Shown here in pieces: positions 39,738 to 62,199 of a stretch of 64,000 nucleotides of DNA. The stretch comes from Cyanophora paradoxa CCMP329 (taxonomy: Eukaryota; Plantae; Glaucophyta): NCBI GenBank assembly GCA_004431415.1, contig QPMI01000029.1, forward strand, positions 124,001 to 188,000. The letters run 5' to 3'. The notes beneath the pieces are model-generated. The model made no database searches and was not told the origin of the DNA. It saw only the letters and a program-made list of their open reading frames with translations. Position 1 is the first letter of the stretch. Every line of letters starts with the position of its first letter. Both the position numbers and the translations under genes were made by a program.

Positions 39738-42700
39738 CTATGAATGACGACCGGAAGAACGCGCGGAATGCGCGGTGCCGGCACATCGGGGGCTCGCGCT
39801 TGGAGACGGGGTCCTCGTGCCAGCCGCCGAGGCGGGCGGCCGCAGATCCGCCGCCCCGCGGGCCCCGCCCGGCGTCTCCACGACCAGGTCGAAGTGCCCT
39901 CCGTCGAATTCGAAGACCGACGACGGCCGCGAGACGGCGATGGACGGGGCGGGGGACAAGCCTGCAGCTCCCGAGAACGCGCCCGGGGCGGGCGGCGGCG
40001 CCAGCGTGTCGCGACTGACGGAGACCGACAGCTGCAGCCGGCCGAGCCTGTCCCTCAAGGCGTCCGCCAGAGGGCGGTTGGGCTGAGTTCTTCCTCCGTC
40101 CGAATCGCCGCTATCGTGAGCTGCTGGTCCGTGGCGAACTCCACCGAAGTCGGCCGCGACGTGAGCTGCCGAATTATTTTGACCTCCTCCAGTACCCGCG
40201 TTCAAAGCAGCACCATCCCATAGAGGCAGCACGCCAGCGGGCCGCGGCCGGTCGGTGAGTCTCGACGATGCCGCTCGAAGCTCCTCCGCTTCCCACTCTA
40301 GAGGGCGCCTCGCTTGGCCCTGCTGGTACCCCGGCCTGTCGGGCTCGAGCTGCTCGTCTTCGGCGCCGTCGTCGTCCTCGCCCGTCTCCGAGTCTCCCCC
40401 GAGATCCACATCTCCCGCACCAATGTCCGCTGGTTTTGCGTCGACGTCCGATGGACGGCTGATCGTGAGGGGCGAGGCGATCCACGGCATAACCTTCCGG
40501 AGCTTCTCGAAAACCTGCAGCGCATGTTAATTTGACGCAGCGTCGCCCGCGAAACCAAAAGGACACAGGCGCACTCGCTCTTCGCCAAAAAGATAGAGCA
40601 AGATGAGAGTAATGACGAAGGCAATGTTTGAAATAAATCCGACAGCGGCAACAAAATTCTTCTGCTCCTCGGAAAGACCTGCATCGGGGAAAAGGAAACT
40701 TCCACTACAAATGGGAACGAATGAGCATTCAAGTACTTGATGAATGAACGTGAATGCAAAAAATAGTCGACGCACAGCCAAATCGTGACAAGTGCGCCCA
40801 TTTGACAGGCGACATCAACGCTGCCGATTCGAACGTTGGAGCGCGGTTGAATTCTCATATGCAGAATCAATCCCATAAAAAGAACGAGTTCTCCCATCAA
40901 CAGCTGCACGGCTGGCCTGCGCATTCGAATGCGCAGGCTTCAGCAAGCGAACGTATCGAGCACTCCGAGGCTAGCTCTATCTGGCGAATTCGAAACGCAC
41001 CGATCGCTAAAAACTGCCATGCAGACAGCGAGAGCCGTCTTCTGAATCATCGACACAAAGGCGAACCAGAACCGCTCGCGCTTATAACCCTGCTCGAGCG
41101 ATTAGTTTGACACACCCGGCGAATCAAGACTGCAGCTTCAAAATTTGCATCCGAGCAGACCCTGTACAGGAACGAAAAGTAGAGGCGGAACTCGCGGTCT
41201 TGGTCGTCGCGGATCCGGTCGCGGTAGAACCAGAGGAAGACAGCCGTGCCAGCCGGGACTCCAACGCCGTAAAGTCTGCACCATAAAGAACGCATTGGAG
41301 TCCGACTAAATAATACAATAAGACTTTAATGCAGACTTAAGGGGCTTATAATAAGCTTAAGACTATTTAATAGCGGCTATAATGCAGACTTTAATCATGC
41401 AGACTTTAATGCAGACTATAATGCTATAGTCTTGCATTATAGCCGTTATTGCACGAAAGAGCAAAATAAAACTCGAGTGATGAAGAAGCGATCGGACTAA
41501 CATGAGGAAAGGCACGTCGACGCCGTAAATCCAGCCACGATACTCCGCGGATGAGCAGTCGACGCTGGGATCGCGCGACAGCAGAGATACGCCCCCTCCC
41601 ACGTTTACGCAGCCTGCGGCGCAACGGAGGACGTCAAGTCTACGAGGGGCGTGGTTAACGTGAGCGGAATGCACCGAAGAGCGACGTGAGCTTGCTGATG
41701 ATCATCGGCTGGAAGAAGAAGACGAGAACAATGGCTCCGACGACGTAGATGTGCTTGGCGTTCTGCCAGAACCCGCTCTTGCGCAGGTCCATCTCCGCCA
41801 CTGCCTCCATCATGGCGTCCGCATCATCGTCAGGTTTGCTTGCGCTTCCAGCTGCAGACTTGATGCGTTTTACTGCCGCGGCCGGCTTCTTTGCGTCGCC
41901 TTCCGCCGAAACCGTCCCGGTTCCGCCTTTCGCCGATAATTTGAGAGCGCGCCGTATCCACTGCGTCAGCGGCCTGAAGATCGCGGATCCCCATCGAATT
42001 ACGTGCTTCGATGCAACGTGCATCAACGGAACGAGTAGAGCGATCAAAAACGGTAGAACTGAATCGAAACAGCAGTCAGTATTTCAACGCGCCAAGGGAG
42101 CAGAGTATAGAAACTGGAGCCGCACAGAGAGCCGCCATCGGGAGCAGAATATAGAAACTGAAATGAAGAAAACGTGCCATCAGGTGAAAGAATGTCTGTG
42201 TACGTAAATGCAATATAAATATATAATTGCGCGCACAGGAGCTTCGCGAAGACTGGACGGATTCCAGAGTGTCCCTCTCTCGTCAATCCGAGTATGCAGT
42301 CGAGATTGACGACGCGTTCCATTGGAGAGACCATAGCCTCTTCCGCCCCGAGGAGGCCGTTCAGCACCGACGGCCACCGGACGGAGAGGCCTTTCGAGAG
42401 AGTGATGAGTTGCAGATAATCGAGCAGGATCTGGAGAAAGATGCCGCGCTTCTCGTCATCGTCCGTGTTGCTCGCGTCCTTGATTGTCGTCCACGTAATG
42501 TACCTGTGTATTGGATCCGTCAGTACTATAACGAAGACAAGAATTCGGTAGTACAGACCCCGCGAAAAGCAGGAACGCCAGCGCCACTAGGAACCCTATA
42601 ACGGCAGAAGCGGCCGGGGACATGCACTCCGTGCAGGCGTAGTCTCCTGAATTCGAAGGCAACGCAAGACGCTTAATGAGCAGAGATCGGGCAGAGCGCA

Positions 42701-44533
42701 ATGGCCTGAAACAAACAAATAAGCAAGCACCAGCTCGTCCGAATCCATTCACACAGACCCCGCACAATTGCCCTTCGTATCCGTTGTTGCACTTGGACAC
42801 GTAGGGACTTTCTGTATCCACTAGGAATGCCAGCAGGTTCCGTCGCGCAGCTGCAGTACAAAGGGAAGTATTCTGACCTCCAGCTCCACTCGAATCCGAC
42901 GCGTTTCGAGGACACGTGTCGTTAGAAAGTAAAAACGTGCTTGAGCTCACGATCGAGGCTGGTGGCAAGCCCCCGAGACAGCTCTCCTTTCCGTTCAGAC
43001 ACTCTATGAAAACGTTCGGGTCGTATGTGCTCTGGAACCAGCCCCTGCAGATATATATCAGCACGTAGAAAAACAATTGCTGCCGGCGTCGCAAGCTTAA
43101 GCTTGCGAACAGAACACTGGCATACTCTTTTGCGTAAAGTTTTGCGCCGCCATCGCAAATGGCGCCTTCAGGGCATCGACGGCAAGCCGCGTCCTGCGGG
43201 TTGAGGCTGTAGAAATTGGGCCCACTGCGAAAGGACAGCTTTTAAAACATGTGTTGTAAAGAAGAACGCTTCACAATTCGAACGAACCACTCGCTGCAAA
43301 TCCTGGCCGCCTTGTCGAGGATTTCGCCAGGAATGCACTCTCGCAGGAAGACAGAGAGCGGGGCCGGTTGCAGCGGCCGATCCGCGACCGAGAAGCTCAG
43401 ATTGTACGCCGCGCCCGGCATCTCGATTAGGCGGACGTCAGAGAGAAAGGCAACGCCGTTCAGCGTGGCGTTTGTAGTCGTTCCTGTGTACATGCGATCG
43501 CGAGTTGAGTCAGACATCAGCTTGTTAAGCATCGAGACGCTTAAGGCTTGTACGCGACGCGCACCTGTCAACGAGGTCGATGTGCTCGTTGTTGAGATTT
43601 GAATGAACGATCCAGAATCCGCCACGATGGAACTGCATGATTATCTTCAGGATTCGGCAAGAGAGATCTTTAATTTGCACGTGCACGAACCCGTAGGCAT
43701 CCTTCATCGTCACCTCGAAAACAATGGACTTGCCGCTCGCTACGTCAACGGGCTGGGACCGAAGCTCCGGCACGATGCGTTCGGTCGGCGTGGCGCATGC
43801 GGAGCCGTATGCCGCCGCGTTCTCCGAGTAGGCGGTGCACGCATGTGAAGAGAATCCCGTGCACACGGAGAGGTCCGGTGTGTTTACGTACACTCCGCCC
43901 CCGCCGACTTGAGCGCGGTTCATGAGGACAGAAGAATTCGATAACGACGCGCCGCCGCACGCGTCTTTCTCAATAAACAGTCCGGCGCCAAGCGATGCTG
44001 CGTTTTGCCTTACTGCGATGGAGTCTAGGCTCATGTTGCCTCGTTTGACGAACACGGCTCCTCCTCTCACTGCAGTGTTGTTCAAGAGCGTGCAGAAGGT
44101 CAGCTTCAATACTGCACTGCTCGCGGCATGCACTCCCCCGCCCTCAGCTGCGCCCTTCATTCAATACTTCGCCCCGGTGCAGGTTTCGGGGGCCATGGCC
44201 ACTCACTCGCGGTATTCGCCTCCAGCAAAGTCTCGTGCAAGAACAGCTGCCCGTCGGCCTCCGTCCCAACTGCGCCTCCCCGGCCCCGAGCCGCATTCTC
44301 CTTCAGGGTCGATGCCGAAATCCAGACCGAAGAGTGTCCGGCGGCGTACACTCCCGCAGCGTCCCCTACAGCCGCCTGCCCCTCCAACAGCGTCGGAAAA
44401 CCTGCACGATTTCCGGTAATGCTGCTGCCGTCGATTCGAACCGCTGCGTGTCGGTCTGCTGCAACGCCGCCCCCCGACACTCCAGCGACGCAGGCCGAAA
44501 CGCTTGATCGAGAAAGCAGCAGATGCACGCGGT
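39738..44533 (-). CDS. Polymorphic-membrane-protein/pectin-lyase-repeat, Cys-rich, multi-pass membrane protein; 5' part cut off by the viral insertion
   Basis: N.A..GG(A/G)V beta-helix repeats (ENAARGRGGAV, NNTAVRGGAVFV, NRAQVGGGGVY). LRECIPGE, CRRCPEGAICDGG, CNNGYEGQLCGVC. Several TM exons (IVLVFFFQPMII, YGVGVPAGTAVFLW, FSFLY, LILHMRIQP). The reading frame is open up to the junction at 44,533. Confidence 0.8.
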
Positions 44534-44816
44534 ACACATAGTAAAATGCGGAGTTTTAACCCTCGGCTTATCTTAATTGATTTTGTTGATATATCTCGTA
44601 TATTCTATTTCAATCAATCGATAATCTGTGTATATCTTATCGAATATTCATTTATTTCGATTATTTTGTATTCTTTTCGATATTTTATCGTAAATTTCTC
44701 TTATTTTCCGATTAGTCTTACTGAGTCTATCGATAATCTGTATATATTTCCGAATAATATAACTGAATTTCAATTAGATCTTGCCTCTGGTTAAAACTCC
44801 GCATTTTACTATGTGT
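44534..44816. repeat. Terminal hairpin: perfect 28-bp inverted repeat closing a ~227-bp imperfect AT-rich palindrome
   Basis: ACACATAGTAAAATGCGGAGTTTTAACC (44,534-44,561) is the reverse complement of 44,789-44,816; the inner arms keep pairing with many mismatches. Confidence 0.95.
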
Positions 44817-45058
44817 GATTGGTCTGTTTGTTTAATTCTTTTAATCGATATTATATTCATGTACTTTCTCGATTAAATTTAATTAAATTTAATTCATTTA
44901 ATCGGAAATATATCGCTAAACTCGATTAAGATCCATAAATGATTCATTTGTTAAATAAAATAAATCGATCTCTTATTGAATTCAATCGTAATTATACATG
45001 AAATTGATATGTTTTTATCATGTTTTAATGATTCTAAGGGGGGACCCTTAGAAAATTG

Positions 45059-45402
45059 GGTGTCACAGGTGTCACAGGTGTCACAGGTCAATCCCAAACT
45101 TTTGATAGTTGATTTTTATATATGTGAAAACTTTGGGATAGACCTGTGACACCTGTGAACAACACCATTTATGGTAAGATCCTCTTTTATAATGAAAAAC
45201 TCAGTAACAATAAGTAAGAAGTTTATCTATGTAATTCTACTTGAATAAACAAATGAAATAATCGAGTGTCACAGGTGTCACAGGTCCATCCCAAACTTTT
45301 GAGAGTTCATTTTTATGCTATAGAAAACTTTGGGATAGACCTGTGACACCTGTGACACAAACCATATTCAGTAAGGACCTCATATATTGTGAAAATCTCA
45401 GT
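45059..45402. promoter_or_regulatory. Two tandem copies of an iteron palindrome (GTGTCACAG)2-3 - AT spacer - (CTGTGACAC)2; putative replication origin
   Basis: Copies at 45,059-45,158 and 45,266-45,358 within a ~200-bp tandem unit; third copy at 62,036-62,152. Confidence 0.7.
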
Positions 45403-45789
45403 GTTAGTTGGTGTAGTTGATTCAAAAAATGCATTTTATACTCTGATTCATTGTTATTTCCTGTGAAATTTGAGTCAACTCAACCCACTTAGTCAACCCT
45501 TGCATTGAATTCGTAACAAAATCCATATACTATCGATTAATATGAGTCAACCTTGAGTCCACTTTAATTATAGGGGGAATCTAGGGCAGATGCTGAGGTT
45601 TTAGTGTAAGGAAATCGAATAGTATTCGAAATACTTGACATTGCTTAATGTAGGGTGCATTCATATTTCGGCTATATCATACAGTATAATTTCTATCGTA
45701 AAGAATGACCGGAATCCGGAAAATAATCATTGTATAAAGCTATTGTAATAAAAAAGGTAAATTACCCTGTTTATCATTATAGAAACTCA

Positions 45790-46188
45790 TCAAAACGGGA
45801 ATCTATCATGTTTATGTCTCTCAGTCTTCTCAAATGTTAAGAAATTCATTGTTTTATCGATCTCATCAGCAACTGATTGTGTTTTATGCTGAGCTTCTTT
45901 ACCACAACTGAATATATCAATTGCTAACATGCCTTCATTGGAATAACAATGAGCTGTGCAATGGCTTTCATCTAACAGCAGAACCAAAGCAAAACCAGGA
46001 GGTGATAGTTTGCCATCAAATATCTCACAATGCTTATGAACAATCCTAATACCTTGTCTCAATACTGCTTGTTCAAGGGTTCCCATAATCCAATTACCTA
46101 GGAAGCTAACATGCTCATAACCTGTTGCTATAGCTGATTTAGCCTTGTAATCAAGCATAACATGAAAGCCTCTGTATTTAGTCTCCAT
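45790..46188 (-). CDS. speD: S-adenosylmethionine decarboxylase proenzyme (prokaryotic class 1B type, pyruvoyl-dependent) or neofunctionalised homolog
   Basis: 132 aa; G.H.MLD, GF..VLLLDESHCTAH (E|S autocleavage motif), LAIDIFSCG. Confidence 0.85.
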   Translation of the reverse strand: METKYRGFHVMLDYKAKSAIATGYEHVSFLGNWIMGTLEQAVLRQGIRIVHKHCEIFDGKLSPPGFALVLLLDESHCTAHCYSNEGMLAIDIFSCGKEAQHKTQSVADEIDKTMNFLTFEKTERHKHDRFPF

Positions 46189-46211
46189 TAAGAATACCTT
46201 AGAAAAATTAA

Positions 46212-46484
46212 CTAGTCAAACCTAATGCAAATATCCCTATACTCTACTCTGATTGATGAAGTAGCTCTTTTCCTGTGTGCTTGACTCTTTCTTTTGTTAC
46301 AGTCCCTACACCCTGATCCCTTCACATGATTAAAGGGATAGGTAAGGATCACTTTATTACACTGCAAACATCTCACAGATACTTTCTCTTGAGCTTTGAT
46401 GTAATGTGTCTCACTGTAATCGAATTTATCTTTACCATGAACTGTCATAGCAGCATCAATAAACTTTTTTGTTTTACTATCCAT
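46212..46484 (-). CDS. DUF723-like zinc-binding protein (repeat typical of viral homing-endonuclease-like proteins)
   Basis: FI..A..VHG.DKFDYS...Y..AQEKVSVRC..C.......NHVKGSGCRDC. Confidence 0.7.
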   Translation of the reverse strand: MDSKTKKFIDAAMTVHGKDKFDYSETHYIKAQEKVSVRCLQCNKVILTYPFNHVKGSGCRDCNKRKSQAHRKRATSSIRVEYRDICIRFD

Positions 46485-46506
46485 ACTCTATATATAATCA
46501 ATATTC

Positions 46507-47340
46507 TTATGGAGCAGTATCCTGTCCAAAAATGGGGAAATATCGATTTGTGCCATAATACTCAGCATAGGTATTCTGCCTTGCAATAAAATCGGTTCTC
46601 TCAGCATATAATACACACTTGTAGATACCAAACTTGGTGGCTCTAACCAGAAACTGATAATCTTCCAAACCAAAATTGACTCCATGATAAGCAATTCCGA
46701 AATTATCATATGGGGTGATCACAACAGCAAAATTAGGAGTTCCACCCTCTACTTGACATACAGCATATACATCTGGTGGGATATCCACAACTACCTTGTA
46801 GTGGTCACCAATTTCAACAAGAGAGTCTACTACTGCTGTTTGTTCATTTACAACAATGGGGAATATCTTTATAATGTATGGGGCATTCATGCTGGGGACA
46901 TAGGTTCGAATTCTTGTGTTAGGATCAATGGGATTGGGTTGATCATTCACAAATAGAGGCGCTCCAACAGCCCCACCAACCCTAAGACCATCACCAATAT
47001 AAGCTCCCCCCGATTTGCAGTTAATAGCTCCCGACCTAGATTCAAAAGAATAAGTAGACAGAGGATCTCCATAGCTATCTGGGTCTCCATAATGAGCAGA
47101 GAAGTTTGCATTGGTAACAAGTAGCTTAGTTGTCTTAACTATTCCATTATTTTTATCACATCTGAGTTCCTGTAATCTCAGTTTATGGGTGGAACCAAAG
47201 GTGTTCATTGTAGGTTGGACCTCTGTTGATTGGAGACCCTCTACATCATCAAAAGTAGCATGCTGCAGAACATGGTTTGCTGGTGCAGCTAATGATAGCT
47301 GAGGTGTAATAATTCGTTCAAGTGGGGGTTGCTCAGCCAT
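46507..47340 (-). CDS. Putative virion fibre/spike protein, paralog A
   Basis: 277 aa; shaft-like GGAYIGDGLRVGG; C-terminal VITPYDNFGIAY...YKCVLYAERTD resembles head domains of viral fibre-like proteins; clearly similar to the next ORF. Confidence 0.55.
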   Translation of the reverse strand: MAEQPPLERIITPQLSLAAPANHVLQHATFDDVEGLQSTEVQPTMNTFGSTHKLRLQELRCDKNNGIVKTTKLLVTNANFSAHYGDPDSYGDPLSTYSFESRSGAINCKSGGAYIGDGLRVGGAVGAPLFVNDQPNPIDPNTRIRTYVPSMNAPYIIKIFPIVVNEQTAVVDSLVEIGDHYKVVVDIPPDVYAVCQVEGGTPNFAVVITPYDNFGIAYHGVNFGLEDYQFLVRATKFGIYKCVLYAERTDFIARQNTYAEYYGTNRYFPIFGQDTAP

Positions 47341-47363
47341 TTTACATTAAAGGGATATATCTT

Positions 47364-48218
47364 TTATGGGGTCGGGTCATCAATAATATCTGGCTCCGCA
47401 TAGAATCCGGTTGTGAAGATATCAGCAACATTTACCCCACGAAGTGCTGATACAGCTGCTATATCTGTTCTCAGTCCCATAATCATAGTATTGTATACTC
47501 CAACCTCAGTGACAAACAGATCATAGGTAAATGTCAAATTGTTATAAACACAATATCCTCTGCCAAAATGGTTCGAAGCTTGAACAAAGAATAAGTAGTT
47601 GTGTCCTGGTTGATTATTATTGGCTCTACACATGGAAAGCATTGCAGTGGGAAGAGGAATATTTCTTCTTACTCGATCAGTTCCTGTAATGGAAACTAAT
47701 TCCGAATTCTCAAGAGTTACAGAGGATGCAACATAGAAATGCAAAAAAGGTTGCTGTGCAACAGGTGTGTAGAAACGAATTCGTTGTGGGTTCTCCACAT
47801 TTTGTTCGAGAGTATCTGGGACATCATTGTAGGAAACAGATGAAGATAGCTGACCTGAAACTCTGCAGCCACCACCAATAAATGCTCCTCCTGATCTCAC
47901 AGTTACAGCAGCAGTGTTTTTATCATAATCAAGGGCTTTCAGATCAACACTGTAAGCATCAGGACCTCCATTAGTAGGCTGAAAGAAGTTAGCATTTGTG
48001 ACAAGAAGTCGAGTTGTTTTAACCACACCAGAATTCTTATCAGCTCTCAGCTCTTTAACTCGAATAATCGAATTTTTATCAAAGGAGTTGCCATTGGAAT
48101 TGGGTCTCTCTGTGGATTCTAAACCACGAACCTCATCATTTACTTCATGCTGGCGAAAATGCATTGCAGGGGATCCAAGGGAATATATAGGCAGTTGAAC
48201 TCGATTATATTCACCCAT
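47364..48218 (-). CDS. Putative virion fibre/spike protein, paralog B
   Basis: Shares ELR.DKN.G.VKTT.LLVTNANF and SGGA.IG.G.RV.G with paralog A; HFGRGY...YNTMIMGLRTD. ATG at 48,218 follows a TAAAAG motif. Confidence 0.55.
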   Translation of the reverse strand: MGEYNRVQLPIYSLGSPAMHFRQHEVNDEVRGLESTERPNSNGNSFDKNSIIRVKELRADKNSGVVKTTRLLVTNANFFQPTNGGPDAYSVDLKALDYDKNTAAVTVRSGGAFIGGGCRVSGQLSSSVSYNDVPDTLEQNVENPQRIRFYTPVAQQPFLHFYVASSVTLENSELVSITGTDRVRRNIPLPTAMLSMCRANNNQPGHNYLFFVQASNHFGRGYCVYNNLTFTYDLFVTEVGVYNTMIMGLRTDIAAVSALRGVNVADIFTTGFYAEPDIIDDPTP

Positions 48219-48257
48219 TGCTTCTTTTACTAAGAAGGAAAGAAAAATAAACTGCAA

Positions 48258-48563
48258 TCAAGCCAAAGTGATTAAATTCGATCCAAGGGATTGGTAAACA
48301 GTTGAAAGAACTTGCAGGTTGGACGTCATTGCTTTAATGTTGTTATCACACTCATTGTATTTAGCAACAGGGTCACCATATGCAGCTTGAGCAAGGACAT
48401 TAACCAAGAGGTTTTTATACTCATTTACAACTGGTGAGAGCTTGTTAGTTTGCTGAATCGTTTTTTCAACTGTTTGTAATGCGTTTACAAGGGTGATTGT
48501 ATCAAAAGAAAGTGCAACAGGCTCAGTAGAATAGGTGGTTCCACCAAGAGGATAGGTCGCCAT
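48258..48563 (-). CDS. Hypothetical helical protein (101 aa)
   Basis: Intact ORF packed directly against the upstream gene; no recognised motif. Confidence 0.6.
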   Translation of the reverse strand: MATYPLGGTTYSTEPVALSFDTITLVNALQTVEKTIQQTNKLSPVVNEYKNLLVNVLAQAAYGDPVAKYNECDNNIKAMTSNLQVLSTVYQSLGSNLITLA

Positions 48564-51500
48564 TTATAATACTGTGATATTTTTAATTTGGTCTATTTGA
48601 CTTTGGAGATTCTCACAGGTTTGTGTTAAATCTTTGCATTTTTGGGATAACTCCTTCACTGCTTCAATGAGAACCGGAATTAAACCTGTGTATGCAAGGG
48701 TCAAATAATTTTCGTGATTTTTACCTACTACTTCTGGTATGACTTTTTCGACATCTTGCGCAATCAAACCTAAGTTTACTTTCTGTTTTCCATCACCAAT
48801 CTTTTTGTAACTCACACCCTGTAATTTCTCAATTGCTGAAAGGGCGCCGGTTATATTTTTAATGTCGGTTTTGTATCTTCTATCACTTCCTTGTGTAAGC
48901 CATCCCAAAAGTAAACGTCACCATTATTATAAAAAGCTTGCATTGTTATATCATTTCCTGCTCTAAAATGGATCATTTCGTAACCATAACCTTTAATGTA
49001 TGTAGTTGATGATGAACCGAAATAAACTCTCCCATTACCTTCATCTGATGTTATCCAAGTTCCGGTTGCCCAAGTTGTGCGAGCATCTTTACTATATACA
49101 TTATCCCAACTGATCATACCATTTGCTGGTGAGGTTCTCCCTTTTTCTTTCGTCCATCCAACCATACCAATATAACATCTCCCTTTTCTTGCAACAAATC
49201 TAACATGTGAGAAATAATCACAAGCAAAAGAAGCCCACGCCAAACCATCGTGATAATCTGTGGTTCCATAATTTGAGACAGTCTGATAAGTATTAACTCG
49301 CATAATGTGGAACCATCGACCTGCTCGATAGCCTCCAATATCGAAATATCGACAATTCGACCAACACAAATATTGAACATGACATGTTTGCATATTTGCT
49401 GGGACTTCAATTTGCGCCCAGTCTCCACTTGTTGAATCACCTTCAACGATACTATAAAATCCATCCACAGGATTAGAAACAGAAGCTGTCCAACCTGTCC
49501 CCCAAGAACCACTAAATGATAGACCACCACTACCTGTTCCACTCCAAGTATCAAAACCTATAATGTTTCCAACTAAATTTGTTGTTAGTAGATTTGGTTT
49601 ACTATAAATGTTATCCCAAGAAACATAGCCTGTGTGACCACCATAACTACTTCCTGTCCAAGTGCGAGTAAATCCAATGCCCATTATGTGAACTCTTCCT
49701 ACCTTTGGAATAATACGAAGGCGAATAAAGCGATTTCCCAACATAATAGGGACATTTTGTAAACCATTGTGGTTTCCATCTGGTGCGCTTTCATATTGAT
49801 GATAACTATTCACTCTTGCAATGAAAACCGCATTACCTTGTCTATTGATTCCCCAAATCTCAAAGTAACGACAATTTACCCAAGGGAGATATGTTAAGTG
49901 GGCTGTTCCCGTATATAAATCAGTGGGTATTGTGTAATCAACCCATGAGCCGTTAACAACAGTATCGCCACTCTCATTATTGTAAGCATACCCACCGTAA
50001 TTATAGTAGGGTTCCCATGCTGTTCCACCTTCAAAACCCCAACCTCCTGCATAATTATGTGGCGAATTTCCTGCTACCGAAGCATCATACTCTACACATC
50101 TAGGCATTGTTTTGTCGCCAAATTTATAATTTGTAGTTGCATTTATTGAACCTCCGTAAATGATTGTTCCGCTTATAGTCGGAGCGGACACAGTATTAGT
50201 AACTGCAAGGTTGCCGTTTTCATATGATTGTAAAATTGTAGCATCTGCTGAGTTTCTGAATACAACACACGCATTATCGTTATTAGGTCTACCTCGAATA
50301 TATGTAGCATTTGCATTTGCAAAATAGAACCGCTCGTAGTTATCTGTTGATTTTAACCATGTATTAATTGCCCATGTTGCCGTTCCTGGAAGGTCTGCGG
50401 CTGTAATTAATGCCGGACGACTGTAAATATTATCCCAACTTATCAAACCATTCGCTGGCGCTGTTCTACCTACTTCTTTTGTCCATCCAAGCATTCCAAT
50501 GTGAGTTCGTCCTTTCTTTGCGAAAATTCCAATATATGAGAAACTCCCACAAAATACGGATGTCCATAATAAACTCGAATGCCACAGTGTGTCGGCGGTG
50601 TTTTGAATATTTTGATATGTATTAACTCTCATAATATAATTCCATCGTCCATTGCGGTATCCCTGAATATCGAAATATCGCCCATTCGACCAACATAAAT
50701 ATTGAATGTGACATGTTTTCATTCCTGCTGGAACTGCACACTGCATATACCCATCGCCGCTTGCATCGTCTGTTTGGTTGCAATAAAAACCCTCTACTGG
50801 GTTATCTGTTGTGGGTTTCCATCCTGTTGTCCAAGCGCCGGATTGGAATGATACACCTGCGCTATTCCAACCACTCACCACATCAAAATCGGAATATTTG
50901 CCGACAGGATTAAAAGCGATATTATCATAATGAATTAATCCAACATCATTATCGGTTGCTCTTTGTCTACTCCAACCAAATACACCCGTAAAATAAATGC
51001 GACCTTTCACACCTTTTACCACAATCTTTTTATAGAAATCACAGTTTATAGAAGTATAGATAATAGCATTATAGGTACCATCTTGAATTCCGCTATCTTG
51101 TATTGCTTGATAGTGATTAACACGTTTTAAGAAATGCTGATATCCATTAACAGTTTCACCGTAAATATCGAAATATCTACAATTATGCCAATTTAAAAGT
51201 TGAATATAAAACGATTTCATGCCTTCTGGAATTGTCCAACGCATCCAACAACCCGTAACATCTGCGTCATTCTCAGGTGTGGTGTAACATCCTGTTTGTC
51301 CCGTTCTATGTCCTGTCCAATTAACATTCCAATTATTTGCGCTTCTATCTGTCGAAACCACATCTAATTGGTCGAAATCATAACCTTTTGGTATTGTGGT
51401 TCCACCAATTTGTAGAGTGGTAGCATTCACAGTTCCTGTGACAGTTCCACCTGTAAGAGGCAAATAGTTTGCAAGAGCTGTTGTTAACTCTGCATCAGTT

Positions 51501-54500
51501 GTATAACTGCTTAAATCTGCAGAGGTAAGATACCCTTTATTGGTAAGGTAATCATCTGTGACCACACCTGAAAGGGTGGTATTGTGTAAGTTTTTTGCTG
51601 CCATCCTCTGATTGACTTCTAAGGCTCCACCTGATGTCGTTTTTATCCATGCAATCTCACATTTCCCATGATCATCTGTGGGTTGTCCTGCTACAGGAAG
51701 GTAGTTTACAACTTTCTCCCTTGTGAACACAATTTTAGGTCTTGCTCCATCATATGCGCTTTGATCTGTAACGTTTATTTGAATAGCTGCTGAAAAATCG
51801 GCTACTTGTCCTGTTTCACCTGGGTGATAATTCGTAACATAGATACTGGGGAAAGTATCATTTACTCCTACATTGAAATCACCATCATAAACTCCATTTA
51901 CAATTGGATCCCTGGGTAATCTTACTGCAAGAGTTCCCTCCATTGGAGTGCCTGTTTGACCTGTAAAAGTCCCATTGAGACTAACATAATGATCATTCAA
52001 ATGCAATCTTTCAGGTGTATTACTCGATTGGTAAAGTGTGACTCCATTGAAAACATTTCCGATTGCATTCAACTGTGCAAACACTGGTTGTTGATCGATT
52101 TCACTCCAAGGGTGTCTGTGATTGCAGTTGGTGATCTGGGAATAATCATGACTGTGTGGATCAGGTGGAAAGGTTAATGGTGGATTTGTTATATGCTCCC
52201 ATAAATGCTCATGAGAACTGGGTGGGAAGGTTAATGGTGGATTTGTTATATGCTCCCATAAATGCTCATGTGCAAAATCTGTTATTTCATCTTTTGTGTG
52301 GGTGTGGTTATCGATCCAACCTAAAACTACATTGGATGTAGGATGATTTGGTAGATTCGCTTCAATATTCACAGTCAAATAGTCGACTTCTAGATTACTT
52401 CCATAAATATTACTTGCCCATAGGTTACTTGTGAAAATGTTACTTGTATAAAGGTTACTGGTGTAGATATTGGAAGTGACTGTAAGGTTTGTGTCATTTT
52501 TGATCACAAAAAGAGAAAGAATATTTGTGAGTTCACCTTCATCAATATATCCTTGATCTTCTAGATAATCCTCTGTGACCACTCTCGAAATATTTTCATT
52601 GTGTATGTTTTTTGCAGCCATCCTCTGATTGGCTTCCAGAACCCCACCATAATCTGTTTTAATCCATGCAAGCTCTGCCCTTCCATAATTATCATTTGCA
52701 GTTCCCACTATGGGAATGTAGGAATACTTATCTCGACTGAAAACTATCATTGGTCTTGAGCCATCTAAGCTGCTTACATCTGCTACATGAACCTGTATAG
52801 CAGAGTTGTAATTTTGGTAGGTTGCTGGGTCTGTTGGGACTCTGAATGTATCTGTGGGAATGTCAGCCTCCATGTAGCTTGACACAAAGATATTTGGTAT
52901 GGTTGCTCCTGGTGGTGGTGGGGTTTCAAAAGAGCCTGGTAATGTCCTAATATGAAGTGGTCCTCTCATAGCTGAATTTGCAAGTGTCCCATTCACATGT
53001 ACATAGTGTTCATTCAAAAAGATTCTTTCTGGGACATTACAAGTCTGATAAAGAGAAACCCCCAAGTTATCAAGAGGCTCTACCTTTGCGAATTCTGGTT
53101 GGTCATTGATCTCATCCCAAGTATGTTCATGTTTGCTTGGTGGGAACTCAGTAGGTATCCCATCAATTTCTCCCCAATCATGCCTGTGATCCTCTGGTGG
53201 ATACTTTTGAGGTTTGCCTAAGATCTCATCCCAATCATGATTGTGATCCTCTGGGGGATACTTTGCAGGTTTATTATTAATTTGTTCATAATCAGGGAAG
53301 AACTCCAGATCTCAGGTCGAAATCCATCTGGTAACAATTCCTCATGGGTTCATAAGGTTGCTCATAGTCAACAGCTGGTGGATCATGACCATCTGGTAAA
53401 TACTCCTCATCAGGTTCATAGTTCTGTTCATACTCATATTCTTGTGGGTCAAAACCATCTGGGAGTATCTCCTCCTCATTGGGTCAAACTGATCATACTC
53501 ATATTCTTGTGGGTCGAAACCATCTGGTAAATACTCTTCCTCATCTGGAACGAATTGATATTCATCAAGCTCTAATATATCGACTTCAGGAGGTAAATAC
53601 TGCTCATCTATTTGCTTTCTGGGTTCAATTATAGTTTATTGCGAACTTGCTCCCAACTAACAATATGCTGCCAAAGGCTACATCTTCAGTTGCTGTGTAT
53701 TCTCTTCCAGGCTGTTTCTTTGGTGTTAAATCGGAGGTCCATTTGGAAATGGAATAGGGAATGGAACTGTTGGTCCATTGGGACCATAATGCTCAATTAT
53801 TTCCCTTAGAGTTTTCTCACTCACAAGTTTCTCCCCATTTGCATACACATTGCTGCCATGGATATTTCGCCATTGCCTGGTTCTAATTCCAAGGTCTTTC
53901 ACATTGCTATACAAAGGCAAAAGGTGCCTATCCATTTCGACTAAATCAGGATGTAAATGGATTGCTACTGGTTGACTGGGGCTACTGTTGATTGTAATTG
54001 ATGGCTTTTTTTGATGGACATCTTTTGGAGTAAAAAACCCAAAAGGCTCATTCCTCGCAAAGTCATATGTAATATCCTTGGGGTATACATCATTTGTGTA
54101 GGAGACCTGATTTGTGTTGGCAATGGGACCCACTTGCAATACTTGGGGGACCTCAGCTTTTGCAGTGCTGCCCTCATTGTAAATTCGCAAAGCTGTGTTC
54201 TGTTTGCCCTGCTCATCTTGAACATTGAAAATCAATCGACCACTATCGAACCTGGAAGGTATATCTGGGTGAGTGCCACTGGTTTTTAGTTTCCTAGGTC
54301 TCCTTCTTGTTGCTTTGATCTCTGCCACTTGGTTTGCTTTCACATTACCCAAACTAAAAGCAACACTGACATCCTCTTTATTTGGATCAGTTTGATTCAC
54401 AGATAAAGCATGCTCCCTTGATTGAGTCTTTGAAGAATTATCAGAGCTGTGGTCAATTGAAACTGAACCCTTTACTTTAATATTATCAAAGTTCACATGC

Positions 54501-54562
54501 TTGGTGCTGCTTGCATTATCATCTTGAATGGTTTCTAGATTGGGTGGGTAATTGAAGCTCAT
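48564..54562 (-). CDS. Giant (~2,000 aa) phage-type tail-fibre protein with C-terminal peptidase S74 intramolecular chaperone; split by several 1-bp indels
   Basis: ORF 53,726-54,562, acidic LPDGFDP repeats (53.1-53.6 kb), ORF 48,851-53,065 and ORF 48,564-48,908 join by single-base corrections. HxHxWxxIxxxP tail-fibre repeats; YLPLTGGTVTG; S74 signature SDRRYKTDIKNI...GLIAQDVEKVIPEVV...YTGLIPVLIEAVKEL plus coiled coil. Confidence 0.82.
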
Positions 54563-54605
54563 GGCTTTTACTATATGGATTTATAAAATTCCTGATAAGT
54601 AAAAG

Positions 54606-56160
54606 ATGCCTCTCAGGGTTTGTTTAAGTCTTTCTGGCGGGGGTGCAAGGGGCATTATCATAACCAGGCTGCTCAAAGAAATCGAAAATCGAACTGGCAG
54701 AAGAATAATCGATCTTGTGGATCTTGTAAGTGGAACTTCCACTGGTGGGATCATTGCAATAGGTTTGAATATCAGGCATCCTGATAAACCAGGTGAACCT
54801 AAACTGACAGCAAACGATCTACACAATATTTACCTAGCTCAACTGCCCTTGATTTTTGCAAATCCTCGAAATATAATCGAAAATGCCCTTTTTAATACAA
54901 AGTATGATGTGGGACCCTTGGAGACTGCAATCAATTCAGTTACTGGTGAATCACTAATACAGGATTCCCTAAAGGACATTGTGATTACATCCTTTGATAC
55001 TCAGAATATGAAACCAATATTTATCACAAATGACAACAACTACAACTTTATGCCTTGTAAGATTGCTGCTAGGGCTACTTCTGCTGCTCCTACATATTTC
55101 TCTCCTGTAAGCATTGTTGATTTCAATCGGGGAGTATTTGTCTGTCTCATTGATGGTGCCATTTCGGGAAACAATAATCCCAGTGTGTGTGGTTACAGCC
55201 ATGCAAAGAAGATTTACAGTGATGATGATGATATTATAGTAATAAGTATCTCTTGTGGTGAGGTGGACCCACATTTAGAGTCTGATTATGTGGGTTATGC
55301 TTATGAGACTGTCAACAGCTGGGGAATTCTCTCATGGATTGCCTCAACAGATGGAAGCCCATTGATTAACATGCTCATGGCTGCAAGTGAGCTTTCTGCC
55401 CTTGATAAGATGGAGGAGTTGTTACCCTACAACTATGATCAGGATTATGGGAGATACTATAGGCTGTCAGTGCCTCTTCCAAATCATATAGTAAGCTCCC
55501 TTGATGACACTTCTAAGATCCCAGATATGCTAGCATTCACTGAAAGCTACATAGCAGCAAACAATGATATGATTAATAAGCTTTGCAGCCTTCTAGTAGC
55601 AAACTATGAACTTAAGAACCCTACAAAGGCTTACATCTCATCCACTCTCACTACATCACCTCCTTTGGATGCTAATTGGTATCAGCTTGCAGATGATGCC
55701 TTTACTGCCTCATCCTCTGTGACAGGTAAAGAGCCTTTCATGGCAAGACCTTCAGCATTTGGCTGGGAAGCTGGAGCCTTTGCTCCTGAACAGATATGGG
55801 AAACCCCCACTGAATACCTTCAAGTTGCTTTCCCATATACTTTTGAACTCTCCTCTGTGATTGCCTATGGATCAGGGACACCAATGCTTTTATTAAGACT
55901 TTCAATGTGGCAACATCCACTGATGGATCAACTGGTCTTTTATTCGATCAGATGGGCAAAACAAAATATATGTCTGTGAGAACATTAACAATGCTCACAA
56001 CTCTGGTGATGTGGCTCTATTGAGTGGATTTCCTCTAAGCATCAAGGATGCTTTTTACATAGGTTTCTCTCTCAGAATCAAATATATTCGCATTTATCCC
56101 CTTGTGTATGTGAATGCTCCCACAATGAGAGTTGATTTCACAGGTGCCTTTATTCGATAA
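54606..56160 (+). CDS. Patatin-like phospholipase with C-terminal F5/8 type C (discoidin)-like domain (frameshifted near 55,880)
   Basis: GGGARG, GTSTG, ARATSAAPTYF, LIDGA; then FTASSS...W.A...EYLQV...V..YG; after the shifts ATSTDG and IKYIRIYP.....MRVDFTG. Confidence 0.85.
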
Positions 56161-57081
56161 ACTCCAACTGAAAAGAATTATCGATTCCATTCATATCAAT
56201 CAGTTCACCAAAGTAATCTTTAAACTCAACTGTGAGTTCCCTTATCACCAGGTTTCTGTCATTTATCTGAATGAATTCTGCATGCTCACCACTATGGTAA
56301 ACATAGCCACCTATATCTTTACTCAATTGCAATCTAAGGATAGCTCCCTGGTTATGTGGTTGCGATTTCGGAATTATATTGTGTCTGCTGGCAAAAGGGG
56401 CAAGCTCTTTAATATGCATGTACAGATACTGCTCAGCATTCATATCAGACATCTTATTACTGGTGAAATAGTACTGCAAGGGCTTTGAGGAGAGTCTGGG
56501 TCCTGAGAAGGTGATTCCCCATGCTGGGTGATCAGGTGTAATAGGTTTACCATCATACTTTAAAAGGTTCTCAGGTCGATATGGAGATCCACCAACAGGA
56601 GGAGTGCTATAATACCCAGTGGTGTATTCAGTAGAACTTACACCCAAAAGCTTCCCTATTCGCTTGTTGCTTGCAATAAAACGAAACTCATGATTACTGT
56701 AAAACTCCACTTTATAGGTTGTTGGGTTGTAGAATATTTTGAACTCAAAAGCTACTGTTTTGCCTGCAATTGTTTGGAAGCTTGAATAGTTCAGCCCATA
56801 ATTATAAGGGTGTGTGACCCCAAAATGACCCTGATTGATGTAGCCACTGGGAAGGGATACACTTGTTGTGTGATCACTTGGTTATATGAACCATCTTGGT
56901 AGTTAAAATCAACTGTTAAATGATCAGTTCCCACACTGTTATAGATACTGTTTGGAATCTCTGCATAGAGAACCCTGCATTCTCTTGGTCTCTCTACTGG
57001 AGTTGTGAGGGTGACCCTGTAAGAGTTTTCATTTTGTCCTTGGCTTCTATCTCTGCTATCAATATTAACAAGTCGATTCAT
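56150..57081 (-). CDS. Minor capsid (penton-type single jelly roll) protein 1, frameshifted near 56,800
   Basis: VNIDSRDR...YRVTL...AEIPNSIYN at the N-terminus; YLYMHIKEL and LTVEFKDYFGELIDMNGIDNSFQLEF at the C-terminus. Confidence 0.78.
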
Positions 57082-57110
57082 TTTAATATATAAATATAGA
57101 TAAAAGAAGA

Positions 57111-58120
57111 ATGCCTGTGGATTACATCGAGGTTAGCTCATTTAATACAATCTCTGGTGATGGTCCCACATCAAGCTTTGTGGCTCGACTTCCCAGTACT
57201 TATGAGAATGTGAGGGCTGTGAGACTGGTCTCAGCCGAATTTTATAACAGTATCCCTATGGTGAGTGGTGAAACCAAAGCAGGAGATGTGACAGTTGACA
57301 ATGCATTTAGCATTTATTATTCTGAACAAACTCCTGGAGCTGGAAGCTCAGGAATTCCAACAGTTCGCCCAGCTGCTGACTATGAACAATGGAAACAATT
57401 CATTATAAGTCGAAACACCCCCATCCAAAGCCACCAGCAACTGGTGAATGTAATTAACTCTAAATTCGAAGGCAGAAATCCCCAACCATCCATTCGCTGC
57501 AAATGGATGAATCACTGAAACGAATTATATTCCACTCAGCAGTACCATTTTACTTGGCTTTCTCAGTAGCTGTGAACCCAAGCCAACAAACAATCCAAAA
57601 GCTGTTGAGTTCAGCTAGACTGCTTGGTCTTGATCCTGGAAGATATGGCAATTCCTCAATCCAATCCCAAGTTTATGATGCTCTCACTGATGGAATCTTT
57701 ACTGGTGGTCGCGTGAATGGCATTATATCTTCTTTTGAGCCTGAGAAGACCAGGGACAGTGTTTTGTTTGTGAGAGTAAAGGAGCTGGGTGATCTGGTGC
57801 AATGTGGGGATGGTCTTCTGACTGGTTACTTTCACAAAATAGTGGTCCCTGATAAAGACTATGGTGAGCATGTTGTTTACAATTCAACAGAAGCTCACCC
57901 ACTTTACAAATACTATAATAAGAAGGTTGGATTATCCACTTTTTCGGTTGATATTGTAAATGCTGTTAATGAACCAGTTGATTTTGAGGGTCAACCTGTT
58001 CATCTGACCTTTGAAATTCGCTATGGTGATGAGCCAGCAGGAGACCCAGTTTATGAATACTTTAAGATGAGAATGTCGCAGCTTCACCCTTCCTATCCAG
58101 TTATTACAAGCTTCGCATAA
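57111..58120 (+). CDS. Minor capsid (penton-type) protein 2, frameshifted near 57,510
   Basis: IEVSS...FVARLPSTYENVRAVRLVSAEFYN; LFVRVKEL; FSVDIVNAVNEPVDFEGQPVHLTFEI. Confidence 0.72.
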
Positions 58121-58173
58121 ATTAAGGATCATTGGTAGATTTTTTATGTTGCAGTATAATAAAAGAGAATATA

Positions 58174-59540
58174 ATGGATATCACTTCCACTCTTCAAAGA
58201 CTTTCGCTGAAAGAAGCCCTAACAACCCCAGAGGAGGCGAAAGCCTTTTTCCTGGATAACTCCCTTATGCTTGGTCTCGAATCCAAGTCTAAGCCAGTTC
58301 TTGTTGTTGTGAATCCCAGCAATACTTTTGAGAATAATGTAGGAAATCGCATTTCCTTCAAGCTACCTCGCTACAATTTCTGTGGAAAACTCGAACTTGC
58401 TTTCGACCTTCCTGCCATCACTTTTGCTGGTGATACTGATCTGGTTCGCAATGGATACACTCGACCAGTTGGTGCTTTAGTTCAGCGACTTGAAATTACC
58501 TATGGATCTTACACCTACCATATTCCATCTGATTTCCTTGCTCATTTCCCCCTGGTCTATTATTCGGAGGATCAACTAGCTAAAAAGAAACGCTCAATGG
58601 GCATGGTTCATGGTATCCCTGCTCATGGAACTAACCGACTTGGTGGCTCATTTTTCGTTGAAATCCCAGTGCCTTGGCTAAATCACTACCTTCCCTTGGT
58701 GCTTTATCTGGTGAAATGGTTGTTACTGTTTGGTTTAAGGATGCTGGTAAGGGTTATGTTGAAACTTCCTATGGTGGTCGCTCTCTCCCTGTTGTTGGTG
58801 GGACAGTTGCTGATAAGACAGAAGATGATGGTCTTGGTGATACTGCTAATGCTACACTTGCCCATGTTGGTCAAAACATCACCACTTTCAGTCTTGGTGC
58901 AACAACCCCTGTCATTTCTATTACTTCTCCTCGCCTTTACATGCATGCTATCAATGTTTCTGATGAGCTTTTCGCTACTGTAATTGAAAAAGTAAAGACT
59001 ACTGCATGGCTATTCCCTCCCTTGATATTGGATTTGTAGATGCTAGTGCTTTCCCTGCCAAGGGCAATGCCCAACCCAATCGAATTAACCTCTCTCAAAT
59101 CTCAGGTCTTGTATACGCTCTGCTTGTTCAGTTCGTGATCATGAAACTGTTGACAAATCCAATGGCTCCCACAGTGTTCTTAAGACCTATGCTAACTCCA
59201 AAGAGATAACATTCACAACTGAAATAAATGGACAGCGACTTTTTGCCACTGAGCAATTTCCCTACTCAAAGGTGCTGAGCTAATTGCTGATGCCTTCAAA
59301 TGCTCTAACATGGATAAGGTTGCTGATCGCTATGTCCTTTCAGGATTGCCTTTCTGCCTTGATGGAGAAAAGGCGATTCGAAATATTGCCCAGTCTGGTT
59401 ATGTTGATTTAACAAATTCCTCCTCTTCATTCCTCACCCTCTACATGCCTTCAGATAAGGTAATCGATGTTAATGTTCGCGCTCTCATGCATAGCTTTAT
59501 TATTGTCGACAAAGATGGTCTGAGACGTATCAATCTTTAA
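58174..59540 (+). CDS. Major capsid protein, double jelly roll, NCLDV-like; several frameshifts
   Basis: GNRISFKLPR...LELAFDLP...GALVQRLEITYG; FVEIPVPW...LPLGAL..EMVVTVWF; PRLY; PFCLD...SGYVDLT...VNVRALMHSFIIVDKDG; ~455 codons, between the minor capsid and ATPase genes. Confidence 0.82.
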
Positions 59541-60370
59541 ATGTTACCATTTTCAGTCTCCCTGCATTATTTTTATCTGTCTTTATTTAGGAAGATCTAC
59601 AACAATGACTATACCAGTTCTGATCTGGATGAATTTGTGGCTGGTGAAATGATAGAACCCCCTTTCAGACTACTCATACTAGGTAAAAGTGGATGCGGAA
59701 AAACTGAAGCCGTAAAATATTATTTGAAACAGCTGCATGATGCCAAAAAGATTGATACAACCCTTATTATATCCGCTACCTCATTCTCACATTTCTGGGA
59801 CAAAGCTGCTACTGTTCAACTGGGTGCATGGGATCCCCAATACATGTCGAAAATTATAAAAGAAAGAGAGGCAAAAAGGGAGAAAGGAGAAGAACTTAAC
59901 CATATGCTGGTGATTTTAGAGGATATGATAGAAAATGACCAGCTGGATCTCAGTCGAGATAAAACAGTTGGAATGCTTTATGTTCGTGGCAGACATGTGA
60001 ATATATCAATTATAACTATCTCTCAGAAATTACGAAAGGTTGCAAGTGTAATTCGCTGCAATAGTGATATAGTAATTATGGTTTGTGCAAGCAATCAAAA
60101 AGAGCTGGAAGCATTTGCAGAGGAGTTTTCAACTTTTCCTCGCAAAGAAGATTTCTATCAACTGTTTGAAGAGTATGTCACTCATATCAATTCCTTGTTA
60201 TACATCTTTCAAGTATAATGTGGCTACTATGTGATAAAGCCGATTTAGTTGGAGATTTCGATTTTCCTCGCTTCCACAGGAAGCCCAAGAAGAAAGAAGA
60301 TGAACTGAAACCACCAGAAAAAGAGGAAGCCCCTAAAGAAGTGAAAAGCCAAGTCCATAGCAATAAATTG
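59541..60370 (+). CDS. A32-like (FtsK/HerA superfamily) genome packaging ATPase; start and end affected by frameshifts
   Basis: Walker A GKSGCGKT, Walker B LVILEDM, A32 motifs RGRHVNISIITISQ and IRCNSD. Confidence 0.92.
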
Positions 60371-60422
60371 ATGCGATATAAACGCGGTTTATAAAATTAT
60401 CTCTCATTCTAATAAAGATACA

Positions 60423-61042
60423 ATGCCTCCAAACGAAAGATAGGGATCCCAGCTGGGGCTGTTGGCTATTCAGGTGGTGGAAACAATGGATCCATTAATA
60501 CTGAACCAATGAAATTCAATGGTATGAATGAGGTGAAGCCCTCACAGCAAGAAGAGGACCTCTTAATGCTGCCTATGAGAATCAGTCGATGACAAAGCCC
60601 CACAGGCTTCAACCAGTGACCAACTCAACATCTCACCAGAAGCTTCGAAAATGAAAGCTGTTGCTGAGGGTGCCAGGCGAATATTGGTGCTGCTGATGAT
60701 AAAGGTTTAGGCTTGCAAGATCTATCACTGGCTCGCAAAGGTGAAGGTCTTAGTAAGGAATCAGACAAGGTAATCCAGTCTATGGCTGGTGAAGTCACAT
60801 ATAAGACTGCTCCCACTCAAAATATTCATCGAATTCCAAAGGCTCAATGGGATGAGATGACTGCTAAACTCAAAGATCTGGAAGCCAAATCAAGTGCCTT
60901 GGAGCAGTATGTTACTGAGAAGAAAGAGAGATCCAAGCTAAAGGAGATGCTTCGAAAGGAAGTTTATAAAATGGGCATTACTGGTGTCCCAGATAAACAG
61001 TTTATTGCTAAAAAGAGAACCAAATTGATGAGCAGGCAGTAG
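60423..61042 (+). CDS. Hypothetical viral protein with coiled-coil C-terminus (fragmented)
   Basis: ATG after TAATAAAG at 60,423; ORF 60,713-61,042 is the intact 3' portion. Confidence 0.4.
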
Positions 61043-62035
61043 ATGAAATGAAAACAAAGACCCAGAAGGGAACTATTGAACCTGGTGCCACAAAGCTGAA
61101 GTCGAAAAGGAGTAGCCCCAACAGTATATAAAAGACGAGTTTGGCTTTAATTTTCTCTGTTTTATTAGAGACATGGATATAATACGAAAGTTATTGAGAT
61201 GCTCAGTCTGCATGTGGTGAGCAATTGCCACAGTGGATGCTGTGACACAACAATAGAGTTTGAGATGTCAGATACTGAGGATAATGTATCTGAAGCAGAG
61301 AGAGAAGGAGATCAACAGTTTCAGTGGAGTCAATGCCAGCAGACCCACAGAGTATACATATGAGCAACAGGAGTATCCAAGGAGAAGTTCTTTACAGCGA
61401 AAACGTTTTCTCAGCAAATATTAATGGAGGATACAATTAGTTTGATCGAGTTTACTAGTGATGACCTTTAACTGAGGGTGCTATTAGACACATTCTAGCA
61501 AAGCAGAAACGATATAGAGAGACCCAGCATATAGAGAGTATAAGAAACAACAAGCCCTGGCATCCTATTATCGCAGAAAAGCCCAAAAAGAGAGCAGAGA
61601 CCCAGAGGGAGACCGATTAAATATTATTTGCCAACTGAAAGTAGCAATGGACCCCAGGTCTATAAGATAATTGAGAAAAGCGGTCTCAGTATGCAACTGA
61701 GGCAGCTATAAAATATATACAAAGGAATTGGCTTTATACTTGCAATCAAGTCACAGATAACTTTGTAAATATGCTTTTGTTGTTTTTTGTTTGCATTCTC
61801 AGACACTGAAACAGTTATGTGAATGTTTACTGATCTATTTCTCTTTGGTTTGTTGCATACATATTGTAACCTTTTAATCTCTGTGACATTTCGATATATG
61901 CCCTATATCTCCATGCTTTATGCATTTATCTAACTCAGTCATGGTCATCTCATCAAGAGTCTTTGCCATTTTGTCTTCACTATACACAATCAAGTAAGCC
62001 TTAAGTATTCTTGTCAAATTTTGGTCTTTTCGATC

Positions 62036-62152
62036 GGTGTCACAGGTGTCACAGGTGTACAGGTCTATCCCACCGATTTTCAAAATCATTTTTTATGTTG
62101 ACTTTCCTGGGATGGACCTGTGACACCTGTGAACAACACCATTTCAGTAAGG
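62036..62152. promoter_or_regulatory. Third iteron palindrome, immediately downstream of the D5 primase-helicase
   Basis: GGTGTCACAGGTGTCACAGGTGTACAGGTCTATCCCA...TGGGATGGACCTGTGACACCTGTGAACAACACCATTT, homologous to 45,059-45,170. Confidence 0.75.
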
Positions 62153-62199
62153 CTATAAACATTACATATACAAATCAATCATTATCGTTTGTTTAATAT

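Follow-up and report, generated by a model that had tools for sequence, protein, structure and literature searches.

In a Polinton-like element of Cyanophora paradoxa, the gene that comes first from the left end, an unbroken reading frame at 45790-46188 on the minus strand of the window (the whole stretch of 64,000 nucleotides that was analyzed), is predicted to encode a pyruvoyl proenzyme of the class 1b AdoMetDC fold that belongs to the SpeDA-type clade and is likely an arginine decarboxylase. Judged from its sequence, arginine is probably the substrate, and we consider it reasonably likely that the enzyme feeds the polyamines of the Polinton-like virus. The initial annotation had named the product a SAM decarboxylase. 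That label is probably wrong, since the tree, the motif and the gene neighbourhoods of the relatives all point to arginine decarboxylases; the accompanying remark that a substrate switch was possible agrees well with placement in an arginine-type clade.

The ORF runs from ATG to stop over 132 aa and carries ESH, HCTAHCYSNE and DIFSCG motifs, as had been reported. It matches Pfam AdoMet_dc with 43.7 bits (cut-off 25 bits), and all four of its PDB matches with E < 0.001 are class 1b AdoMetDCs from T. maritima or Aquifex. Ser75 (the predicted pyruvoyl serine), His80 and Cys95 align with the processing and catalytic residues of the T. maritima enzyme (equivalents of Ser63, His68 and Cys83). The predicted structure (pLDDT 89) superimposes on the Aquifex and Thermotoga class 1b AdoMetDCs with Z scores of 14.8 and 14.4, respectively, at an rmsd of 2.4 Å over 112-113 residues (2iii: Z 14.8, 2.4 Å, 112 aligned); across all those class 1b structures the values were 14.0-14.8 and 2.4-2.5 Å, and Foldseek recovered the class 1b fold with an E value of 7.5e-8. 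The Pfam label and the fold would also suit a true SAM decarboxylase that gives decarboxylated SAM to a host spermidine synthase, and validated class 1b AdoMetDCs of two algal giant viruses are described in the available portion of PMC9992855; the evidence presented below makes this reading quite unlikely. Against TIGR03330, the equivalog of true AdoMetDC, the ORF scored 44.3 bits, under the cut-off of 75.65, and an Atlas search with the decarboxylase returned generic AdoMet_dc clusters only (0.89-0.90).

The HCTAHCYSNE segment, initially regarded as divergent, is the usual form in a large clade whose signature, LLDESH..AHCYS without Trp-Pro, covers the HCTAHCYS part of the ORF. At position Ser+8, a proline occurs in 0 of 55 archaeal cores versus 28 of 28 (lower-ranked) Pro-type viral cores, and an aspartate at Ser-2 in 55 of 55 versus 0 of 28; the ORF has Ser83 and Asp73 at these sites. 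Because a proline at Ser-12 is found in both groups (55 of 55 archaeal and 26 of 28 viral cores), Ser+8 is likely the position of the discriminating proline which, according to the available text of PMC10407285, is kept in AdoMetDC and not in SpeDA, the latter being little diverged from the former. Among the 140 of 150 profile hits that were parsed, none has the proline at Ser+8, and 133 have the aspartate at Ser-2. The motif alone is not decisive, since the validated AdoMetDC of phage phiYS40 (L179, 59-493) is an exception to the proline rule, with isoleucine at Ser+8; a true SAM decarboxylase can therefore be without it.

The same residues bear on an ornithine (SpeDC-type), lysine or other amino-acid decarboxylase, which we regard as improbable. 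This fold has switched substrate several times (PMC9992855 and PMC10407285, in the portions available), direct synthesis of putrescine would need no partner enzyme, and a virophage gene in the supplement of PMC7805220 looks SpeDC-like by eye. The diagnostic Gln, Thr, Phe and Tyr of SpeDC are nevertheless absent from the ORF, as judged by eye against the fusion alignment, the first three sites being occupied by Leu70, Glu74 and Cys81; furthermore, the assayed members of the Poseidonales clade are described as inactive on ornithine and lysine (PMC10407285, available text).

The initial annotation had suggested building a phylogeny. The resulting tree comprised 38 rows (34 from an earlier 71-row set and four added) and 134 columns, with long outgroup branches, and was built without SpeDC and without other SpeDA clades. 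In this tree the ORF lies with Poseidoniales-type archaea in the archaeal, SpeY-linked clade (100/98), and the validated phage AdoMetDCs of S-PM2, P2559S and phiYS40 form a separate group (99/99). Forcing the ORF in with the validated AdoMetDCs was rejected (p-AU 0.027), which argues against a true SAM decarboxylase. BLAST of the ORF gave 111 bits to the best archaeal row versus 37 bits to the SpeD of S-PM2. The ORF occupies its own sub-branch (98/98) apart from the archaea, so that a further substrate shift is possible; its nearest rows are proteins of 52-59% identity, followed by a group that includes PQ-loop fusions.

Scanning of 54 of the 64 GTDB parts yielded 293 confirmed loci, the best 80 of which were compared. 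Of these 80, marine group II-type archaea account for 79, and the remaining one is on a contig labelled Yoonia. A DHS/SpeY-like gene accompanies the decarboxylase in 79 of them and an agmatinase-like gene in 36. A homologue of E. coli SpeE was found in none of the 80, which again speaks against a true AdoMetDC. Five of these genomes (MAGs, incomplete) contain one AdoMet_dc match each and Spermine_synth in none of the five. Identity between the ORF and ten GTDB Poseidoniales-type proteins ranges from 41 to 56%. In the available text of Li et al. (PMC10407285), Poseidonales and MGII/III genes in the order speB-speD-speY were assayed as arginine-only decarboxylases and grouped with those of Gimesia maris, Solirubrobacter, Nannochloropsis and Tribonema; SpeY is described as coupling agmatine (PMC13625781, available portion). 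The link between the ORF and SpeDA is thus one of lineage and gene order, the assayed SpeDA sequences lying outside the comparison. In GenBank phages the matches were weak and of the Pro type only (E >= 8e-5). In L012, L017, L028, L031, L034 and other GTDB Poseidoniales loci, a single open frame encodes both the decarboxylase and the SpeY-like protein, an apparent fusion.

Fusions were also observed among the long relatives (n = 41, i.e., 38 of the 40 profile hits of at least 200 aa, plus three others). Seven carry PQ-loop segments, five a DS domain (four of these over the cut-off) and one an arginase/agmatinase domain. None of the 41 is fused to Spermine_synth, a further point against the true AdoMetDC. 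SAM-using methyltransferases are present in six of the 41, four of the NNMT type (P0231, P0264, P0287 and P0289, two of them also with a DS domain) and two with a SET domain (P0223 and P0285); SAM-linked contexts therefore exist in the clade. The PQ-loop proteins, in which membrane segments are joined to the SpeDA-type domain, are P0065, P0075, P0213, P0228, P0229, P0265 and P0332. Transporter-coupled or methylated-polyamine pathways are possible on the basis of these fusions. The PQ-loop family is broader than its arginine movers. Some of its proteins are described as moving arginine (PMC8364130 and PMC6803629, available portions), and the PQ-loop fusions lend weak support to arginine as the substrate.

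The element itself extends from 44534 to 64000 and continues past the right end of the window. At about 44534 the GC content drops from 63% in the host part to approximately 39% and stays low up to the window end. The left end consists of an imperfect 283-bp palindrome (44534-44816), recognized by repeat analysis, at which contigs with other flanks stop (at 44534). Contigs join other flanks at this position and one enters unrelated DNA at 44820; the palindrome is a candidate terminal hairpin or separately mobile mini-element. On the minus strand a host reading frame (44157-44537) reaches the boundary, so that a host gene seems to be interrupted here. Within the non-coding left end, a palindromic repeat block occurs twice (45054-45402), with a third copy at 62031-62144 beside the helicase gene, and constitutes a candidate origin.

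Directly upstream of the decarboxylase, on the same strand, lies a gene for a 90-aa CxxC...CxxC protein (46212-46484, minus), whose zinc-finger match is weak and below the cut-off, followed by two ORFs of 277 and 284 aa (46507-48218, minus) with visibly similar N-terminal halves and without a Pfam match. A Peptidase_S74 (fibre chaperone) domain at 48564-48908 (minus; Pfam, 65 bits) adjoins a long repeat-containing ORF (48851-53311, minus) that is without a Pfam match and presumably fibre-like. The right-hand part encodes a patatin-like phospholipase (54606-55979, plus; Pfam, 75 bits), a probable minor capsid protein (57111-58120, plus; assigned by position, without a Pfam match), a probable major capsid protein (58174-59540, plus), an A32-type packaging ATPase (59541-60218, plus; Pox_A32, 50.3 bits) and a fragment of a D5-like primase-helicase (62776-63348, minus; D5_N, 38.8 bits). 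Both capsid frames are broken in this copy. The major capsid assignment derives from likeness to P0354, an intact 456-aa EukProt protein with which the first 173 aa are 66% identical. The Atlas clusters nearest to P0354 (0.98) are viral, with Capsid_N/Capsid_NCLDV on 12-18% of members, a signal of low recognition value, and this capsid type has no Pfam, PDB or profile match. By its gene set (A32 ATPase, patatin, S74, D5-like helicase and probable capsid) the AT-rich element is Polinton-like, and the proposed setting in a small eukaryotic virus is thereby borne out.

In three DNA runs, the numbers of contigs aligned to the final 20 kb of the window were 2997, 7747 and 3329. In run X1, the seven listed element contigs have depths of 796-4477 versus 76 for the host flank; read from contig depth, the element is a multicopy family, summed depth not being equivalent to copy number. 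No contig of runs X16-X18 and X21 covered the host flank (41001-44335), and none of X21 covered the decarboxylase gene, absence of cover being uninformative in both cases. Contigs of X16 and X17 contain a junction (45568/56333) between sequence that follows the patatin gene and the left end in inverted orientation, a candidate for a shorter or rearranged family member. One X17 contig resembles part of the decarboxylase gene and the gene upstream of it less closely, and suggests that a second, diverged family exists. In the repeat part of the fibre-like gene (48670-51337) the CpG observed/expected ratio (O/E) reaches 1.04 and contigs skip 0.5-1.8 kb; its repeat modules are variable and were perhaps swapped recently.

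Frames are broken in several genes of this copy, and short-read contigs differ by single bases at such sites, so the breaks may reflect either errors in assembly or lesions that this copy has suffered. They would also be in keeping with a decarboxylase gene that is a catalytically idle or non-enzymatic passenger, as would its accessory nature and its position at the end of the element. We consider this very unlikely, given that Ser, His and Cys are intact, that the differences listed from contigs are mostly synonymous (five of six), and that the gene turns up in unrelated small viruses as well as in many elements already published. Contigs from four of the five putative RNA runs cover the decarboxylase gene, differing from it by between five positions in 277 bases and 116 in a 1.9-kb piece. 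These runs were assigned to RNA by guess and found by a search with the same stretch, and contigs give neither strand nor level; they offer a weak hint of transcription. A sigma-70 promoter scan revealed nothing above chance, the model not being applicable to a eukaryotic virus.

Genes of this family were found in other viruses. From 224 IMG/VR loci 80 were kept, of which 13 are non-Pro, 66 Pro-type and one unparsed. In L091, L098, L099, L100 and L183 the non-Pro gene has an A32-like ATPase gene and capsid-like genes as neighbours; in L102 its neighbours are a recombinase-like and a primase-like gene. These contigs are called Polinton-like by gene set alone, since the capsid model of L099 has a pLDDT of 31 and the capsids yielded no match in profile comparisons. 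In the tree, the six rows of this viral set group as a separate clade (96/86), and a topology that unites them with the ORF was rejected (p-AU 0.017), indicating at least two separate viral captures. SpeE, SpeY and agmatinase were not found near the gene in 17 non-Pro viral loci, and Spermine_synth was absent from all four virus records carrying the gene that were searched (partial records). Giant-virus bins carry both non-Pro genes (including L092 and L093) and Trp-Pro-type genes; the separate existence of the latter weighs against a true AdoMetDC in the present element. IMG/VR scans with the decarboxylase alone, alignment A1, the ATPase and P0354 recovered no relative, and a scan with alignment A5 recovered distant relatives only.

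Base composition shows a further peculiarity. From 45701 to 64000, GGCC occurs 0 times (28 expected) and GTAC seven times (65 expected). GTAC is also scarce in the small viruses of IMG/VR: 9 versus 45 expected in L091, 3 versus 46 in L099, 0 versus 51 in L102, 1 versus 14 in L098 and 5 versus 21 in L100. This scarcity looks like restriction-site avoidance, perhaps of giant-virus enzymes.

The CpG depletion of the virus noted initially is real: O/E is 0.37-0.40 in the element (0.37 in its coding part) and 0.15 in the decarboxylase gene, versus 1.06 in the host part. The low value of the gene suggests long residence in this virus lineage. The initial annotation had connected the depletion with a SAM decarboxylase that would deplete SAM and so weaken silencing of the integrated virus by host DNA methylation. 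The CpG-poor element is compatible with such a role, and the available portion of a bioRxiv paper (10.64898/2026.10.09.758095) describes an integrated giant virus that its host silences through 5mC. The proposal nevertheless needs SAM as substrate, and the substrate is probably another one. Six other small-virus contigs with this gene type, a separate capture, have CpG O/E values of 0.71-1.06 versus 0.37 in the element, such that depletion does not track the gene. In addition, the loss of CpG is accompanied by element TpG and CpA values of 1.33 and 1.25, a pattern explained more simply by a history of methylation followed by deamination than by escape from it, and the pyruvoyl enzyme is described as being inactivated by its own substrate (PMC10407285, available text). 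The SAM-draining role is thus unsupported and highly improbable.

In the favoured reading, arginine decarboxylation for polyamine supply, the proenzyme is predicted to cleave itself at Ser75, and the processed enzyme would convert arginine to agmatine. Agmatine might serve directly as a DNA counter-ion, or a host agmatinase or deiminase could lead from it to putrescine and spermidine; the polyamines would then support genome packaging and translation during reactivation of the virus. With E. coli SpeE, two DHS/SpeY proteins and agmatinase as tblastn queries, no match was obtained in the window; the reported lack of a spermidine synthase there accordingly stands, and host enzymes would have to finish the pathway in the absence of a partner in the visible element. 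The description of the gene as stand-alone is shown only for that part of the element, 19.5 kb, which the window includes. A polyamine role in DNA packaging, as originally envisaged, is predicted here too, via arginine rather than SAM.

Alternatively, the same arginine decarboxylase might drain arginine (or produce agmatine) in order to counter a giant virus infecting the same cell or a response of the host. The evidence for the substrate applies equally to this proposal, no downstream polyamine enzyme was found in the window or in the 17 non-Pro viral loci, and Polinton-like viruses have been described, in sources available in part, as acting against giant viruses. On the other hand, the giant-virus bins L092 and L093 carry the same gene type themselves, and the SpeDA enzymes that have been assayed turn over slowly (kcat 0.02-0.58 per s; PMC10407285, available text), which would make a poor arginine sink. 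We consider such a role unlikely.

Genes of this kind are already on record in tabulated form. Table S6 of PMC12220804, in its available portion, lists PF02675 in endogenous Polinton-like viruses, namely in 66 of 156 glaucophyte elements, 45 of 706 from Rhodomonas lacustris, and 17 of 57 and 10 of 177 in two Cryptomonas. Tables S1, S6 and S7 of PMC7805220 contain PC_0120, with 22 members in virophages and GKS2 PLVs, which is labelled "DNA methyltransferase" in one column. The word "decarboxylase" is absent from the main texts of both papers, in which the gene is tabulated only, without a substrate. We found no paper that gives the AdoMet_dc genes of PLVs or virophages a substrate or a SpeDA assignment, the supplements of bioRxiv papers and PMC10120064 being outside the scope of the search. 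PMC11633385, considered as a prior record, concerns phosphatidylserine decarboxylase. The enzyme class and the presence of an AdoMet_dc domain in such viruses are thus already known, each separately; the reassignment of the substrate and the evidence for repeated capture are new.

A metabolic gene is seldom retained by a small virus, and one that recurs points to a limiting resource. Should the enzyme act on arginine, Polinton-like viruses would, like phages and giant viruses, be limited by their supply of polyamines or agmatine, and a widespread annotation of these elements would be incorrect. Tentatively, and with slightly less than even confidence, we propose that PLVs and virophages have acquired the smallest PLP-free amino-acid decarboxylases on repeated occasions, the arginine type at least twice, as a one-gene switch on host polyamine or arginine metabolism. 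Such enzymes would then be the first of the SpeDA type in eukaryotic viruses, and the "AdoMet_dc" of more than 100 endogenous elements would largely be mislabelled agmatine makers, of importance for reactivation or for competition with giant viruses.

Compared with known systems, as they appear in the available portions of the respective sources, the one described here is not of a new kind. With the SpeDA clade of PMC10407285 it shares the class 1b fold, the catalytic triad, the lack of the Ser+8 proline and the lack of a spermidine synthase partner; unlike that clade, the ORF is virus-encoded, has no speY or speB in the visible element, forms its own sub-branch and is known from its sequence. 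The gene set of the element resembles the glaucophyte row of PMC12220804 (A32, lipase, S74 and D5_N, with capsids mostly unrecognised). The viral homologues in PMC9992855 are likewise small auxiliary polyamine genes of prokaryotic type: true class 1b AdoMetDC is reported there in phages, HaV01 and Yellowstone Lake phycodnavirus 2, and the pyruvoyl arginine and ornithine types only from phages, with no Polinton-like virus named in the available text. A functional parallel in that source is the ADC pathway of chlorovirus PBCV-1, in which a eukaryotic DNA virus also derives agmatine from arginine by means of a repurposed decarboxylase; the PBCV-1 enzyme, in contrast, is PLP-dependent and of another fold, and belongs to a giant virus that encodes the full pathway to homospermidine.
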